DNA of 23,831 nucleotides. Source: Promethearchaeota archaeon. Its GTDB lineage: Archaea > Asgardarchaeota > Lokiarchaeia > Sigyniarchaeales > SOKP01. The position numbers and the translations under genes were made by a program. The notes under the pieces were generated by a model. It searched no databases. It had not been told where the DNA came from and worked only from the letters and a program-made list of their open reading frames with translations. The DNA is taken from contig JAFGOA010000114.1 of the NCBI GenBank assembly GCA_016926735.1, positions 1 to 23,831 on the forward strand, given 5' to 3'. Positions within the stretch are counted from its first letter, which is position 1. Each line of letters opens with the position of its first letter. Shown in pieces: positions 119 through 12,091 of this stretch.

Positions 119-280
119 TGAATATACTCTTTATTTATGGAAGGAAAGATATTACCCAATTCCATTTAAAGTATCTTAAAGGGTCCCAAACTCAGAATAA
201 TTAAATATTAGGAAAAATTGATAATATATAGTAAATAAAATTATATTTAAAATAAAAAAATTTAAAAAATTGAAGTATAA

Positions 281-1698: not shown

Positions 1699-1918
1699 TA
1701 GAAGGAATTATCTGTTTTATATATAAGAATTATATAAAAATATGAATAGTATTTTTAAAAATACTTATTTATCATTCATATTATAATATCAACTCTATAT
1801 ATATTATTTTATATCTGCAATTTTATTCTATAATTATACTATATTCTAATATTTTTAAGAATTTATCAAAAATATCTAAGATATTAGAGAAAAATTATAT
1901 ATTTTAGAATATCATCTT

Positions 1919-2419
1919 CTATTTTGTTAATTCTTTTATCAAATTCTTATTTTCTGGGTATTTATTTATTAATTCCTTTCTTTCTCCCTGAATATAATCA
2001 TTATATTCAAATCCTGGGGCTACAGTTGTACCTAATAGTGCAAAATCGCCTCCATTTATTAATTTTGCTCCTTGCCAAACGTCTTTCGGCACAATTACTT
2101 GAACTTGCATATCATCTAAAATTCTATTACCTAAGATTATTCTTTTACTTGACCCATCAGGATATAATTGCAGCATTTCCACTGGATCTCCAAGATAAAA
2201 ATGAAAAATTTCATCGGATCTAAGTTTATGTATTTCAGAATAGGTATCTTTTGTTAAAAGATAATAGATTGCTGTTCCTATACTTCTTTTGCCGTTATAT
2301 CTTTCTGGAAGGGCTTCTTTTTCTATTATTTCTGAAGAACGATATGTTTCAAAAAAAAATCCTCCTTCTTTTGGATGTGGTATTAGTTTTAATTTTGTTA
2401 TAATTTCTTGTACATTCAT
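1919..2419 (-). CDS. Cupin_5 / DUF985 family protein
   Basis: L.PHP(K)EGG.F.ETYRS, TAIYYLL, H.L.SDEIFHFY.GDP, Q..VP...WQ.A and TVAPGFEY.D motifs. Confidence 0.92.
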   Translation of the reverse strand: MNVQEIITKLKLIPHPKEGGFFFETYRSSEIIEKEALPERYNGKRSIGTAIYYLLTKDTYSEIHKLRSDEIFHFYLGDPVEMLQLYPDGSSKRIILGNRILDDMQVQVIVPKDVWQGAKLINGGDFALLGTTVAPGFEYNDYIQGERKELINKYPENKNLIKELTK

Positions 2420-2569
2420 ATAATCGATTATAATTTATTTTACTTAAAATCATTAATTGAATTTTTAGGATTAATTATAACCTATTTTTTAAGTAGCTAG
2501 TAAAAGGTAAGACCTGATAAAAATAGAAACAAATTTATTCTACTTAAAATTAAATATAATTATATGTAT

Positions 2570-2653
2570 ATGAGACAAATAGAGTGTACCACTCTAACTT
2601 TTGGATTTAAGCCCAAGACAGGGCAAACATTTAACACTGGTTATAAAAATTAA
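2570..2653 (+). CDS. Putative Thr/Lys-rich leader peptide of asd (MRQIECTTLTFGFKPKTGQTFNTGYKN)
   Basis: ATG at 2570 (another in-frame ATG at 2564) to TAA 2651-2653. Has 6 Thr and 3 Lys in 27 aa and lies 240 nt upstream of asd, followed by a C/T-rich tract. Confidence 0.55.
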   Translation: MRQIECTTLTFGFKPKTGQTFNTGYKN

Positions 2654-2893
2654 TCCAATTAAAATCGTCTCTATCGCCTTTTCTATTGTTTTCCGATCTT
2701 TTATTACTTTCAAATCATCACACTTTACCACATGAGATGATTTTATTTAACGATTATTTTTTTATAAAAGAAGATCTATGTAGAGATTTATCGATAATAA
2801 AAGATTTAAAGGGACTTAGTTCAATTAAGGGTCTGTCTAAGCAACTCAGAGGCACAGAACTTAAATTCAATAGACTTTTTATAATAAATAATC

Positions 2894-3985
2894 ATGGAAA
2901 AGATTAATATTGGTATATTAGGAGCTACTGGAATTATTGGTCAAAATTACATCAAATTACTGCAGGATCATCCTTGGTTTCAAATTACAGATCTAGCAGC
3001 ATCTCTTCAATCTGCAGGAAAATCATTTATAGAAGCTGTAAAACATAAATGGCAAATGTCAATACCTATTCCTGAAGAATTAAAAAACTTGATTGTAAGA
3101 GATGTTAAAGATTTTGATTCTATTCCTGAAAATGTTAGTTTTGTGTTTTCTGCTATTAATATGCCATCAAAAGAACAAGTAAAAGAAGTAGAACTAAGAT
3201 ATGCCAAAAATGAAATTCCCGTCGTTAGTAATAACTCTGCACACCGAATGACTTCAGATGTTCCTATGATTATAGGTGAAATAAATCATTCTCATGTCAA
3301 TGTAATTCCTATTCAAAAAAAAAATAGAGAATTCAACAAGGGATTTATTGTAGTAAAACCTAATTGTACTGTTCAAAGTTATCTTACACCAATATATGCT
3401 TTAGAAAAAGCTGGTTATAAAATTGAAAAGTTAATTATTACCACTTTAAATGCACTCTCTGGCGCAGGGTATCCTGGAGTTGCGTCATTGGATATCATAG
3501 ATAATATCATACCTTATGTAGGTGATGGAGAGGAGGAAAAAACTGAGATTGAACCTCATAAAATACTAGGAAAAATAGGTGATAATGGGATCATAAACAA
3601 TGATTCTATCAAAATTAGCGTCACTTCAACAAGGGTACCTATTGTAGATGGTCATACAGCATGTGTTTCTGTAAAATTTAGAGATCAAATACCATCAAAA
3701 GATGAAATTATTAGAATATGGAATGAATTTAAATCACTTCCTCAAGAACTTGATTTACCATTTGCCCCTAAACAACCAATTATATTTTTAGAAAATATTG
3801 ATCGACCTCAACCAAGAAAAGATAGAGATAATGATAAAGGTATGGCAATTTCTGTAGGAAGATTAAGAAAAGACTCAATCTTTGATTATAAATTTATTGG
3901 ATTAAGTCATAATACTATTAGAGGTGCTGCTGGTGGAGCAATTTTAAATGCAGAACTTTTAAAATCTCAAGGATTCATTTCCTAA
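2894..3985 (+). CDS. asd: Aspartate-semialdehyde dehydrogenase (archaeal/fungal type)
   Basis: GATGIIGQ Rossmann motif, SNNSAHRM, catalytic PNC, ALSGAGYPG, RVPIVDGH and HNTIRGAAGGAILNAE. Confidence 0.97.
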   Translation: MEKINIGILGATGIIGQNYIKLLQDHPWFQITDLAASLQSAGKSFIEAVKHKWQMSIPIPEELKNLIVRDVKDFDSIPENVSFVFSAINMPSKEQVKEVELRYAKNEIPVVSNNSAHRMTSDVPMIIGEINHSHVNVIPIQKKNREFNKGFIVVKPNCTVQSYLTPIYALEKAGYKIEKLIITTLNALSGAGYPGVASLDIIDNIIPYVGDGEEEKTEIEPHKILGKIGDNGIINNDSIKISVTSTRVPIVDGHTACVSVKFRDQIPSKDEIIRIWNEFKSLPQELDLPFAPKQPIIFLENIDRPQPRKDRDNDKGMAISVGRLRKDSIFDYKFIGLSHNTIRGAAGGAILNAELLKSQGFIS

Positions 3986-3993
3986 TTTTTTTT
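3986..3993 (+). terminator. Oligo-T terminator after asd
   Basis: T8 run immediately after the asd stop codon, in the 14-bp gap to the convergent gene. Confidence 0.5.
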
Positions 3994-3999
3994 ATTTTA

Positions 4000-5274
4000 T
4001 TATTTTAAATAGAATTCTGTGTCATCTTGATTAAATTCTCCAGTGATTTCTCCTTTCCCTATTAAATCAAATATAATTCCTATAATTTTGTCTGGCTCAA
4101 TTTTTAAAAATCGTTGAATATAATCAATTTTAACATTTTTCTTTACTTTAATTATTCCTAATATTCTATCTTCAAAATTAACTTTCTCAATTTCTTCAAT
4201 TAATCCTTGCTTTTTTTTGGAATAATGAGTATCGAATTTATCTGAGGAAATTTCTTTTTGGTCTACATATGAGGATTCTTTTTTCATTACATTATCCTCA
4301 TATTTAATACTTTCATTTTTAATTTCAGTGTTCATTAATGAATTTTCTTCTATTTGAGCTTCATTAATTTTAATTGATTGTTCGAGTAAGGGACTTTTCT
4401 CCATTAACGTTCCTATTAACGGGGTAGATTCATAACTTAATTCTAAAACTTCTGCTAAAATCCTGATCATTCTATCACGATTTTCATTACGATTAGCAAC
4501 CATGGGATAGGTTATCAACCCTAATTCTTTTTCAATATCTTTTATATCCATGGCTCCTTTTAAATCCTGTTTATTTCCTATAACTGCTGATCTTGCATAT
4601 GGAACTTCCTTTTCTATTAAATCAATAAAAAATTTGCTTTTTTCTATATTATTTAAAGTTGAATCTGTGATAACTAAAACACCATCGCTACCCTTTATAA
4701 AACTCTTCCATAAATAACGAAATTGTTCCTGGCCTGCAAAATCAAAAAGATTAAAAAATAGATCTCCAATCTTGATTGTTGCGATATCTCCAGTAATAGT
4801 TGGGATATGATAAGTAGGGATTTTATCAAGTTTTATTAGTTGTTTTGTGGTTGTTTTTCCTACACCTGAGAAACCAACAATAGATATCTTTGGTTTTAAT
4901 TTTCTATGGAGAGGATCTGCAATTGAATTTATAATATCAGTTTGGTCTTGTGTTAATTTATCATGTATTTGGTTAAAATTAACCTTATCAAATACTTCTT
5001 GTTTGAAAAGAGCTAGTTCTGGTTTAATAGTACTAAAATAATCATCTACTAACCCTGTAATAAATAGAAAAATTAATTCTTTTTCTATATCAACATCATA
5101 TGATACTCTAAACTTAAAATAATCAAAATGATCTGTATTCTTTTCAATTCTCCTTTTAAGTATTTGCCATATTTTATAGCTGAGATCTTCTATTTCTGAA
5201 TCTGATAAAGCATTGCTAAAATATCTTTTGTATAGAAAATCATTTTTTTTTAAAATTATAATCTGCCTTAACAT
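4000..5274 (-). CDS. Asgard small GTPase fusion: longin-like N-terminal domain, Arf-like GTPase, C-terminal winged-helix/PCI-like domain
   Basis: G1 GFSGVGKTT, G2 PTI, G3 DFAGQ, G4 NKQD. About 125-aa N-terminal beta-beta-alpha domain. C-terminal IFDLIGKGEITGEF resembles a winged helix. Confidence 0.85.
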   Translation of the reverse strand: MLRQIIILKKNDFLYKRYFSNALSDSEIEDLSYKIWQILKRRIEKNTDHFDYFKFRVSYDVDIEKELIFLFITGLVDDYFSTIKPELALFKQEVFDKVNFNQIHDKLTQDQTDIINSIADPLHRKLKPKISIVGFSGVGKTTTKQLIKLDKIPTYHIPTITGDIATIKIGDLFFNLFDFAGQEQFRYLWKSFIKGSDGVLVITDSTLNNIEKSKFFIDLIEKEVPYARSAVIGNKQDLKGAMDIKDIEKELGLITYPMVANRNENRDRMIRILAEVLELSYESTPLIGTLMEKSPLLEQSIKINEAQIEENSLMNTEIKNESIKYEDNVMKKESSYVDQKEISSDKFDTHYSKKKQGLIEEIEKVNFEDRILGIIKVKKNVKIDYIQRFLKIEPDKIIGIIFDLIGKGEITGEFNQDDTEFYLK

Positions 5275-8209: not shown

Positions 8210-8311
8210 TGGAGTTGATAGGACTCGAACCTATGCCCTCTCGAATTTCAATTTCGACCATCTCATATAAGAATGATTGTCGAAGGTCCTTCCCCATTAG
8301 ACGACAACTCC
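8210..8311 (-). tRNA. trnF: tRNA-Phe(GAA) with a 28-nt intron at position 32/33 (intron 8251-8278)
   Basis: Acceptor GGAGTTG/CAACTCC-A. BHB-type motif TTCG-ACA-ATCAT…ATGGT-CGAA-ATT. Splicing gives TTCGA-CT GAA AT-TCGAG. T arm ATAGG-TTCGAGT-CCTAT. Confidence 0.88.
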
Positions 8312-8645: not shown

Positions 8646-8691
8646 TTAAAATGGGAAAAGAATGGGCAAGATTGGAAGGAGAATTTAAATA
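8646..8691 (+). promoter_or_regulatory. Repeated upstream motif TTAAAATGGGAAAAGAATGGGCAA plus TATA (TTTAAATA, 8684), copy 1
   Basis: 22/24 identical to 12046-12069, with the same +33 offset from the first ATGGG to a TATA box. Confidence 0.6.
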
Positions 8692-12045: not shown

Positions 12046-12091
12046 TTAATATGGGAAAAGAATGGGTAATTTTGAGCGAAATCTTTATATA
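12046..12091 (+). promoter_or_regulatory. Repeated upstream motif TTAATATGGGAAAAGAATGGGTAA plus BRE/TATA (GCGAAATC-TTTATATA, 12084), copy 2; promoter of tRNA array 2
   Basis: Strong TATA with a purine-rich BRE-like stretch, motif shared with 8646-8669, and ATG 33 nt after the TATA start. Confidence 0.65.

Follow-up and report, generated by a model that had tools for sequence, protein, structure and literature searches.

A conserved upstream reading frame, a predicted two-state RNA and a probable second promoter before asd in an Asgard archaeon

In enterobacteria, the thrL leader peptide upstream of thrABC serves as an attenuator for Thr and Ile. Upstream of trpY in Methanothermobacter, a Met-Trp minigene of just two codons is proposed to sense amino acids in translational control of the regulator, and no RNA switch is known there. 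Another arrangement, represented in yeast by SRG1-SER3 and LUTI, involves an upstream transcript that crosses the promoter of an amino acid synthesis gene and causes transcriptional interference. Leader-peptide attenuators are known from Proteobacteria, Actinobacteria and some Firmicutes, as far as the accessible portions of PMC2965389 describe them. In Sulfolobus, excerpts of PMC3597687 describe LysM as an activator of lysWXJK that uses a semi-symmetric site centred at -64, upstream of the BRE-TATA.

Amino-acid-sensing leader peptides require transcription-translation coupling plus conditional termination. No report of such a peptide in archaea was found in the full-text literature, a body that leaves most subscription papers outside its coverage, and the accessible sections of two archaeal Ribo-seq papers note uORFs only as candidates (PMC11456600, PMC10117724).

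Here we describe the region upstream of asd in a Promethearchaeota archaeon. The window, meaning the whole 23,831-nucleotide stretch of DNA that was analysed, carries asd (aspartate-semialdehyde dehydrogenase; TIGR00978, 371 bits against a cut-off of 301) as a single-gene unit at 2894..3985 on the + strand. Its genome also encodes the DAP lysine genes, hom/thrC and aCPSF1. A uORF precedes asd within a cassette of about 330 bp that comprises a promoter, the uORF, a predicted two-state RNA, a conserved box and a second BRE-TATA. The genome has two asd copies, and the second, on contig C151, is without the cassette.

Judged by its predicted RNA states, the asd leader likely works like a leader-peptide attenuator, yet it fails to show two features of that type, tandem codons and a hairpin terminator. 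What it shares with thrL is a short upstream ORF rich in end-product codons, together with predicted alternative pairings and a predicted stall that leads to read-through. In contrast to thrL, it is archaeal, its uORF is predicted to be leaderless, its Lys and Thr codons are dispersed, and U4 tracts stand in place of a strong GC hairpin terminator. Furthermore, its switch strand, located past the stop, is complementary to the start region, and a second conserved promoter-like signal separates leader and gene. It resembles the trpY minigene in the proposed sensing of amino acids by a tiny archaeal uORF.

The upstream open reading frame and its putative promoter

A sequence-only reading of this DNA had drawn attention to a Thr/Lys-rich ORF on the + strand upstream of asd. 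Its coordinates (2570-2653, with the ATG at 2570 and the stop at 2651-2653), its 27 codons, its 6 Thr and 3 Lys, and the 240 nt that separate it from asd are all borne out. Such Thr richness is rare: the genome of the window has 1710 intergenic ORFs that begin with ATG and span 22-34 codons, of which nine have at least 6 Thr, and six combine at least 6 Thr with at least 3 Lys. By itself, a content of at least 3 Lys is unremarkable (689 ORFs), and the Lys count of the asd leader in the window, taken alone, is not unusual (p=0.48).

The start at 2570 is probably not the true one. An in-frame ATG at 2564 is invariant in all 15 aligned homologs, whereas the ATG at 2570 is missing from four of them. 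The true start is probably 2564, and because of this difference in conservation we regard it as very likely. The uORF thus spans 2564..2653 (+) and has 29 codons, including 6 Thr, 3 Lys, 1 internal Met and 1 Ile; the ORF originally noted constitutes its last 27 codons.

An alignment of leader regions from relatives, a check that had been suggested for asd, comprises 15 homologs, and the leader is conserved across 5 genera. Indels within the uORF are of 3 and 6 nt, and one of 1 nt is found just past the stop. The TAA of a conserved stop motif (before ATCC) is in frame in 15/15 members, although the search pattern made no such demand, and four members stop earlier by 2-8 codons. In a gap-free block of 28 codons from the 15 homologs, column shuffles predict 35 stops and only 4 are seen (P=1.5e-4, a value that, like the counts, overstates independence, since the aligned leader rows are kin). 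The peptide sequence is not conserved as protein. Like thrL, therefore, this is a short ORF upstream of a biosynthetic gene that is conserved as a frame, and on the evidence of the alignment the uORF is real, conserved and frame-preserving. A genome with 1710 intergenic ORFs of comparable size might well yield a chance ORF in AT-rich spacer DNA. This explanation is extremely improbable, and the conservation tests refute it: the element is conserved by 5 genera that keep its frame, spacing and complementary segments at a mean column identity of 56%.

A TATA-like element with an A-rich BRE just upstream, here termed P1, is located at 2532..2541 (+). By eye, 15/15 homologs have an AT-rich TATA-like element at roughly -36 to -28 relative to their first ATG. 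We infer that transcription from P1 begins close to, or directly with, the ATG at 2564 and that the resulting RNA is leaderless. A sigma-70 promoter scan (2 found vs 3.5 expected) is not applicable here.

Codon content and the downstream gene

Control codons are concentrated in the frame. The 12 asd/dapA leaders contain 47 AAG in frame and 4 in each of the two alternative frames, and 43 Thr codons in frame vs 4 and 20 in the others. AAG is the rare Lys codon, accounting for 1.4% of proteome codons compared with 7.8% for AAA. AAA and AAG exchange at four Lys columns of these leaders, and Thr is conserved at two columns (10/12 and 11/12) with synonymous changes.

The sequence-only reading had treated Thr and Lys enrichment as a joint property of the leader. 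Lys is indeed kept across the family, and Thr at the two columns just named, but six Thr are found only in the leaders of the genome of the window and of two relatives, G003 and G002, which have 2-3 Lys. The remaining nine asd/dapA leaders carry 5-9 Lys and 1-4 Thr. The six-Thr leaders are three of the four asd leaders of this genus, and they have Thr at three aligned codons where relatives have Lys. Within the same genus, the four dapA leaders have 4-5 Lys and 0 Thr. As read from the alignment, Lys is the family-wide signal and Thr richness is local.

Asd acts before the pathway splits toward Lys, Thr and Met, and dapA belongs to the Lys branch. Lys-only dapA leaders and a gain of Thr at a stand-alone asd are the pattern that would be expected of amino acid gauges. 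In the three aligned leaders that precede SAM-using enzymes, two columns hold Met, and AAG occurs 0-2 times per leader. Because these three share derived sequence, the Met class is counted as one event, a single inherited change. Overall, the aligned leaders indicate that codon composition follows the downstream gene, and this shift of control codons among pathway end products is again a thrL-type feature. The tandem runs of thrL are absent. The longest runs of control codons are two, in agreement with the earlier description of the Lys and Thr residues as dispersed.

That description had also linked the uORF to the array-2 leader (12117) through a common ATGAGAC. The shared letters are present, but homology is not supported: the genome has 33 intergenic ATGAGAC sites, and with the family model the array-2 leader reaches just 12 bits (E=2).

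The predicted two-state RNA

Several segments of the leader are predicted to pair in alternative ways. Segment A (codons 3-5; 2571..2578, +) is complementary to segment B (2661..2672, +), a switch strand that begins 14-15 nt past the conserved TAA and pairs with either A or D. Helix A:B is paired in 91% of alignment cells, and its 6-bp core has no compensatory change. Enclosed by this helix is the fold of the untranslated RNA (2580..2643, +), with hairpins at 2580-2596, 2611-2624 and 2632-2643 and, at 2601-2607, a 5' arm whose partner is the stop region. The stop codon lies in segment S (2650..2658, +; TAAT-C invariant in 15/15), which pairs either with this arm or with E. The MFE of 2570-2896 has z=-2.1. 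Covariation in the inner fold is weak, with nine cells changed on both sides (6/500 shuffles as high).

Downstream, a pyrimidine-rich spacer (2679..2702, +) contains three U4 tracts and is followed by a hairpin formed by C (2712-2719) and D (2734-2744), which together span 2712..2744 (+) and end in a U4 tail at 2741-2744. The hairpin is weak at -5.8 kcal/mol, and across the 12 asd/dapA leaders its energy ranges from -1.8 to -11.6 kcal/mol. For C:D, 81% is paired and three changes affect both sides; 49/500 shuffles do as well, so that the control is not beaten. The same holds for B:D (47/500), which is 90% paired, with four pairs changed on one side only (wobble-compatible) and none on both. 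About 10 nt downstream of D lies segment E (2752..2763, +), which is conserved in alignments A4/A5, is complementary to S, and carries a U7 tract (2757-2763) that we predict to be the regulated termination site. A terminator scan found no intrinsic terminator of the thrL type (GC-rich hairpin plus U run) after the uORF stop; its sole terminator-like hairpin lies inside the uORF.

The RNAs were folded up to just past E with ribosome masks imposed as an assumption, the stalled state including one additional ribosome at the start. Under these footprints, the predicted folds hide the tract when the ribosome is stalled and expose it when the ribosome has reached the stop for 8/10 D-tail tracts and 8/8 E tracts. 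The spacer U-tracts are open in both states (21 tracts). An initial idea, a long hairpin that hides all U residues, was dropped since the count of free U is not lower; only the two distal tracts switch. With a single ribosome (first footprint) at any of codons 2-28 of the window RNA, the probability of B:D is at least 0.7, and with the ribosome at the stop it is 0. Without a queue, results for the 12 leaders are mixed: a mid-ORF stall favours B:D in six and is intermediate in one, and B:D fails beyond codon 10 in three and everywhere in two.

We propose that the uORF and its two-state RNA form a ribosome-read Lys/Thr attenuator located upstream of a promoter, P2, that drives asd itself, with additive inputs; this model-based proposal has, in our judgment, an even chance of being right. 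P1 would yield a leaderless RNA beginning at the ATG at 2564. When charged Lys- and Thr-tRNA are plentiful, the ribosome would reach the stop and cover S, A:B and C:D would form, and the U-tracts at 2741-2744 and 2757-2763 would be single-stranded. The exposed tracts could then direct aCPSF1/U-tract termination near 2763. When these charged tRNAs are short, the ribosome would stall at the dispersed AAG and ACN codons, S-B would pair with D-E, both distal tracts would be hidden, and transcription would continue through P2 into asd. P2 and its box would provide a second, factor-controlled input, and starvation read-through would add to it by raising Asd from a spare asd copy. The predicted sign is thus the classical one, in which a stall gives read-through. 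Such a sign makes little sense before SAM-consuming enzymes.

Evidence against the attenuator includes the lack of compensatory changes in the A:B core and B:D, and the three U4 tracts of the spacer that are open in both states. The predicted regulated U-tracts at 2741-2763 do fall inside the 2680-2770 zone where a drop in RNA coverage had been anticipated. Three metatranscriptome contig sets from the same study held nothing matching 1900-4100, a result that weighs neither way. The accessible text of PMC8716108 reports that aCPSF1, the Loki ortholog included, acts on U4 tracts and that Loki aCPSF1 functions in Methanococcus maripaludis; the cassette should therefore be assayable there. A Lys/Thr case with natural codon swaps would make it possible to ask directly if aCPSF1 termination is gated by the ribosome in archaea.

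Alternatively, this RNA might be a switch that binds a metabolite or a tRNA, in the manner of a riboswitch or T-box, and its reading frame would then be incidental or secondary. The multi-branched fold closed by A:B, several invariant nucleotide columns, and an AAG in a hairpin loop, replaced by ATG in the copies before SAM-using enzymes in a way that would suit a specifier, are consistent with such a role. We nevertheless consider it very unlikely, given that the inner helices vary and shift register among homologs, the frame is conserved, and Lys/Thr columns change synonymously. Furthermore, Rfam covariance models (lysine riboswitch, T-box and Thr leader) gave no match at 2400-2900 with E up to 5, and 0 matches at nine homolog loci with E up to 1.

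The box, the probable second promoter and the distribution of the cassette

Between the leader and asd lie a conserved, partly symmetric 17-bp box (2817..2833, +), which is a predicted transcription-factor site, and the BRE-TATA of P2 (2853..2867, +), 34 nt before the asd ATG. A BRE-TATA is present downstream of the leader in 15/15 members (that of G001 was taken directly from its sequence), its distance from the ATG being 34-35 nt at asd and 64-96 nt at the other genes, and the box lies upstream of it in all 15. From box start to TATA start the distance is 43 nt in 17 of 18 cassettes and 54 nt in the other, which has an 11-bp duplication; this count leaves out two near-duplicate cassettes of G003. 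Because the spacing is identical in 17/18 and the exception is +11 bp, it points to a DNA-bound factor that would work on one helix face. With a PWM built without the genome of the window, G003 and two others, the asd site scores second in the genome (29.0), after the site of a dapA paralog (33.6) and ahead of the next at 19.8.

As in the LysM system, the box is semi-symmetric and located just upstream of a BRE-TATA on a fixed helix face, with its centre at about -69 from the asd ATG. Judged against the accessible parts of PMC3597687, which include Table 1, its sequence differs from the motifs given there, it lies about 20 bp from the BRE rather than the 11 bp of the LysM site, and its position is also like that of Ptr2 activator sites. 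LysM itself is not supported as the box factor. The best protein scored 86.7 bits against a cut-off of 180, and no LysM ortholog above the cut-off was found among the 7 of 10 AsnC-domain matches in the genome that were scanned.

The conserved BRE-TATA makes it very probable that asd is transcribed from a promoter of its own into a near-leaderless mRNA. Because P2 stands between leader and gene, read-through need not be the source of asd expression. A start of its own near 2894, with no read-through from 2570, had been named as the observation that would speak against leader-peptide control of asd, and the BRE-TATA supports the first part of it at the level of sequence. The original claim therefore survives in part: the uORF is conserved, its content follows the gene, and a two-state RNA is predicted, yet P2 is conserved before asd as well.

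Another view of these facts is that the uORF serves as a gauge whose output is control of P2. Polymerase crossing the box and BRE-TATA would displace the factor or occlude the promoter, and the long RNA would not be the main asd mRNA. None of the 18 aligned cassettes, which precede four types of gene, lacks the leader, the box or P2, and the tandem layout appears special to this family, given that in the genome of the window just some 50 nt separate the last helix of the ilvE leader from its gene. P2 also predicts an asd mRNA leader of a few bases, and 0/7 asd starts have a Shine-Dalgarno 4-mer; this says little, since only 17% of first-in-unit genes in the genome have one. A greater difficulty is that, if read-through represses P2, a stall would shut lysine genes in starvation, which fits only the SAM-enzyme copies. 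We consider control of P2 unlikely as the main output. It resembles SRG1-SER3 and LUTI in that the transcript of an upstream promoter crosses the promoter of an amino acid synthesis gene. In contrast to the yeast cases, the upstream RNA here would be gated by a translating ribosome, and what is seen here is only the tandem arrangement. The tandem promoter raises the question of whether, in the archaea most closely related to eukaryotes, attenuation can operate by interfering with a promoter. If true, a gauge that works by crossing P2 would be bacterial attenuation wired to eukaryote-like promoter interference.

Perhaps P1, the uORF and the terminator are instead a separate small unit, a small RNA or peptide gene, and asd is run by the box and P2 alone. 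Each part does have its own promoter, the leader has its own U-tracts, and its peptide is not conserved as protein. We rate this as quite unlikely: codon content tracks the downstream gene, and among the true matches there is no full leader copy without a downstream P2. A broader formulation of the gauge that acts on P2 is, in our judgment, somewhat unlikely. In it, the cassette would be a portable Asgard element of about 330 bp in which transcription gated by a ribosome-read amino acid gauge passes over a second promoter and thereby controls it, and single codon changes (Lys, Thr, Met) would retune it as it moves between asd, dapA and SAM-using genes.

In all, 20 cassette copies were recovered. 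Of the 135 family genomes, 12 contain the cassette, and two metagenome contigs (L046, L049) contributed further members. Seven precede asd, nine precede dapA (four in this genus and five in other genera, of which four are dapA-asd units), and four precede SAM-using enzymes (two before a BpsA-AdoMetDC fusion and two before a class I methyltransferase). This total results from adding diverged paralogous cassettes to the members found with covariance models R1 and R2. Run over family and order, these models gave true matches spanning 5 genera; the 19 genomes from three further families had none. Matches judged false on inspection (L062, L063, L065, L066, L047, L176, L180-L182) were dropped. A leader pattern gave 7 matches over 154 genomes and 0 for its reversed control. 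A pattern scan of genome contigs gave 98 stretches, and of the 80 examined the model kept five, all labelled archaeal; among metagenome pattern matches it kept 3/4. The exact box+TATA pattern was too noisy to be useful (at least 28 matches in 161 genomes vs about 18 for the reversed control), and the only new member among the matches listed was a dapA copy of G003. BLAST-type searches with two cassettes as query yielded no further member.

The suggestion of a genome-wide leader-peptide mechanism was an overstatement. By eye, no leader was seen before the two aspartokinases, hom or thrC of the genome of the window, and in relatives the cassette is missing from the majority of asd and dapA copies. 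The leader lies directly upstream of at least 5 of the 30 best asd loci from 61 genomes. The cassette is patchy, occurring at 11 of 42 asd copies, and clustered, with 4 changes on a quick asd tree vs 9.9 when shuffled. It is present at 4/32 dapA loci examined, 1/30 BpsA loci and 2/30 methyltransferase loci. The cassette-bearing asd copy of G003 (L002; G003:C11:1704-2792) has an internal TGA, reflecting a broken gene or an assembly error.

The genome of the window carries an eroded paralogous cassette (L310; C52:35244-35530) between argG and dapA-dapB, with an 18-codon uORF that has 4 Lys, a box and a TATA. It runs into contig C14, whose start overlaps the end of C52 by 17 bases; dapA begins there. 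The same layout is repeated in G001, G002 and G003.

Several other observations concern the SAM-enzyme genes. At window positions 154-207, a weak box+TATA match stands at the standard spacing before a methyltransferase gene (281-1021), and no leader was found upstream of this gene or of its G003 counterpart. Full cassettes precede members of this methyltransferase family in G067 and G002. In G064 and G007 (L346, L347), a member of this methyltransferase family adjoins lysine-pathway genes (dapA and a DapB-like ORF), which hints at a link to lysine metabolism. A BpsA-type polyamine synthase is fused to AdoMet decarboxylase in G141 and in L046 (loci L045, L046, L313-L342), and BpsA_C matches occur in 64/135 family genomes.

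A composition scan of 386 TATA-led uORFs in the genome of the window, whose top ranks look mostly like noise, placed an Ala/Val leader of ilvE at rank 3 and an Ile-rich leader of citramalate synthase at rank 7; the asd leader is absent from this set, its P1 having failed the TATA filter. The latter, a candidate Ile leader (L309; C95:40029, minus strand), is an 18-codon uORF that contains 8 Ile and lies 124 nt upstream of its gene (TIGR00977 above cut-off). Elsewhere in the window, a tRNA-like gene at 8210-8311 is recognized by Rfam and missed by ARAGORN, and it is probably intron-bearing. A purine-rich element of 16 nt is shared by 8651-8667 and 12051-12066, upstream of both tRNA-array leaders, in opposite orientations relative to them, and may be a factor site.
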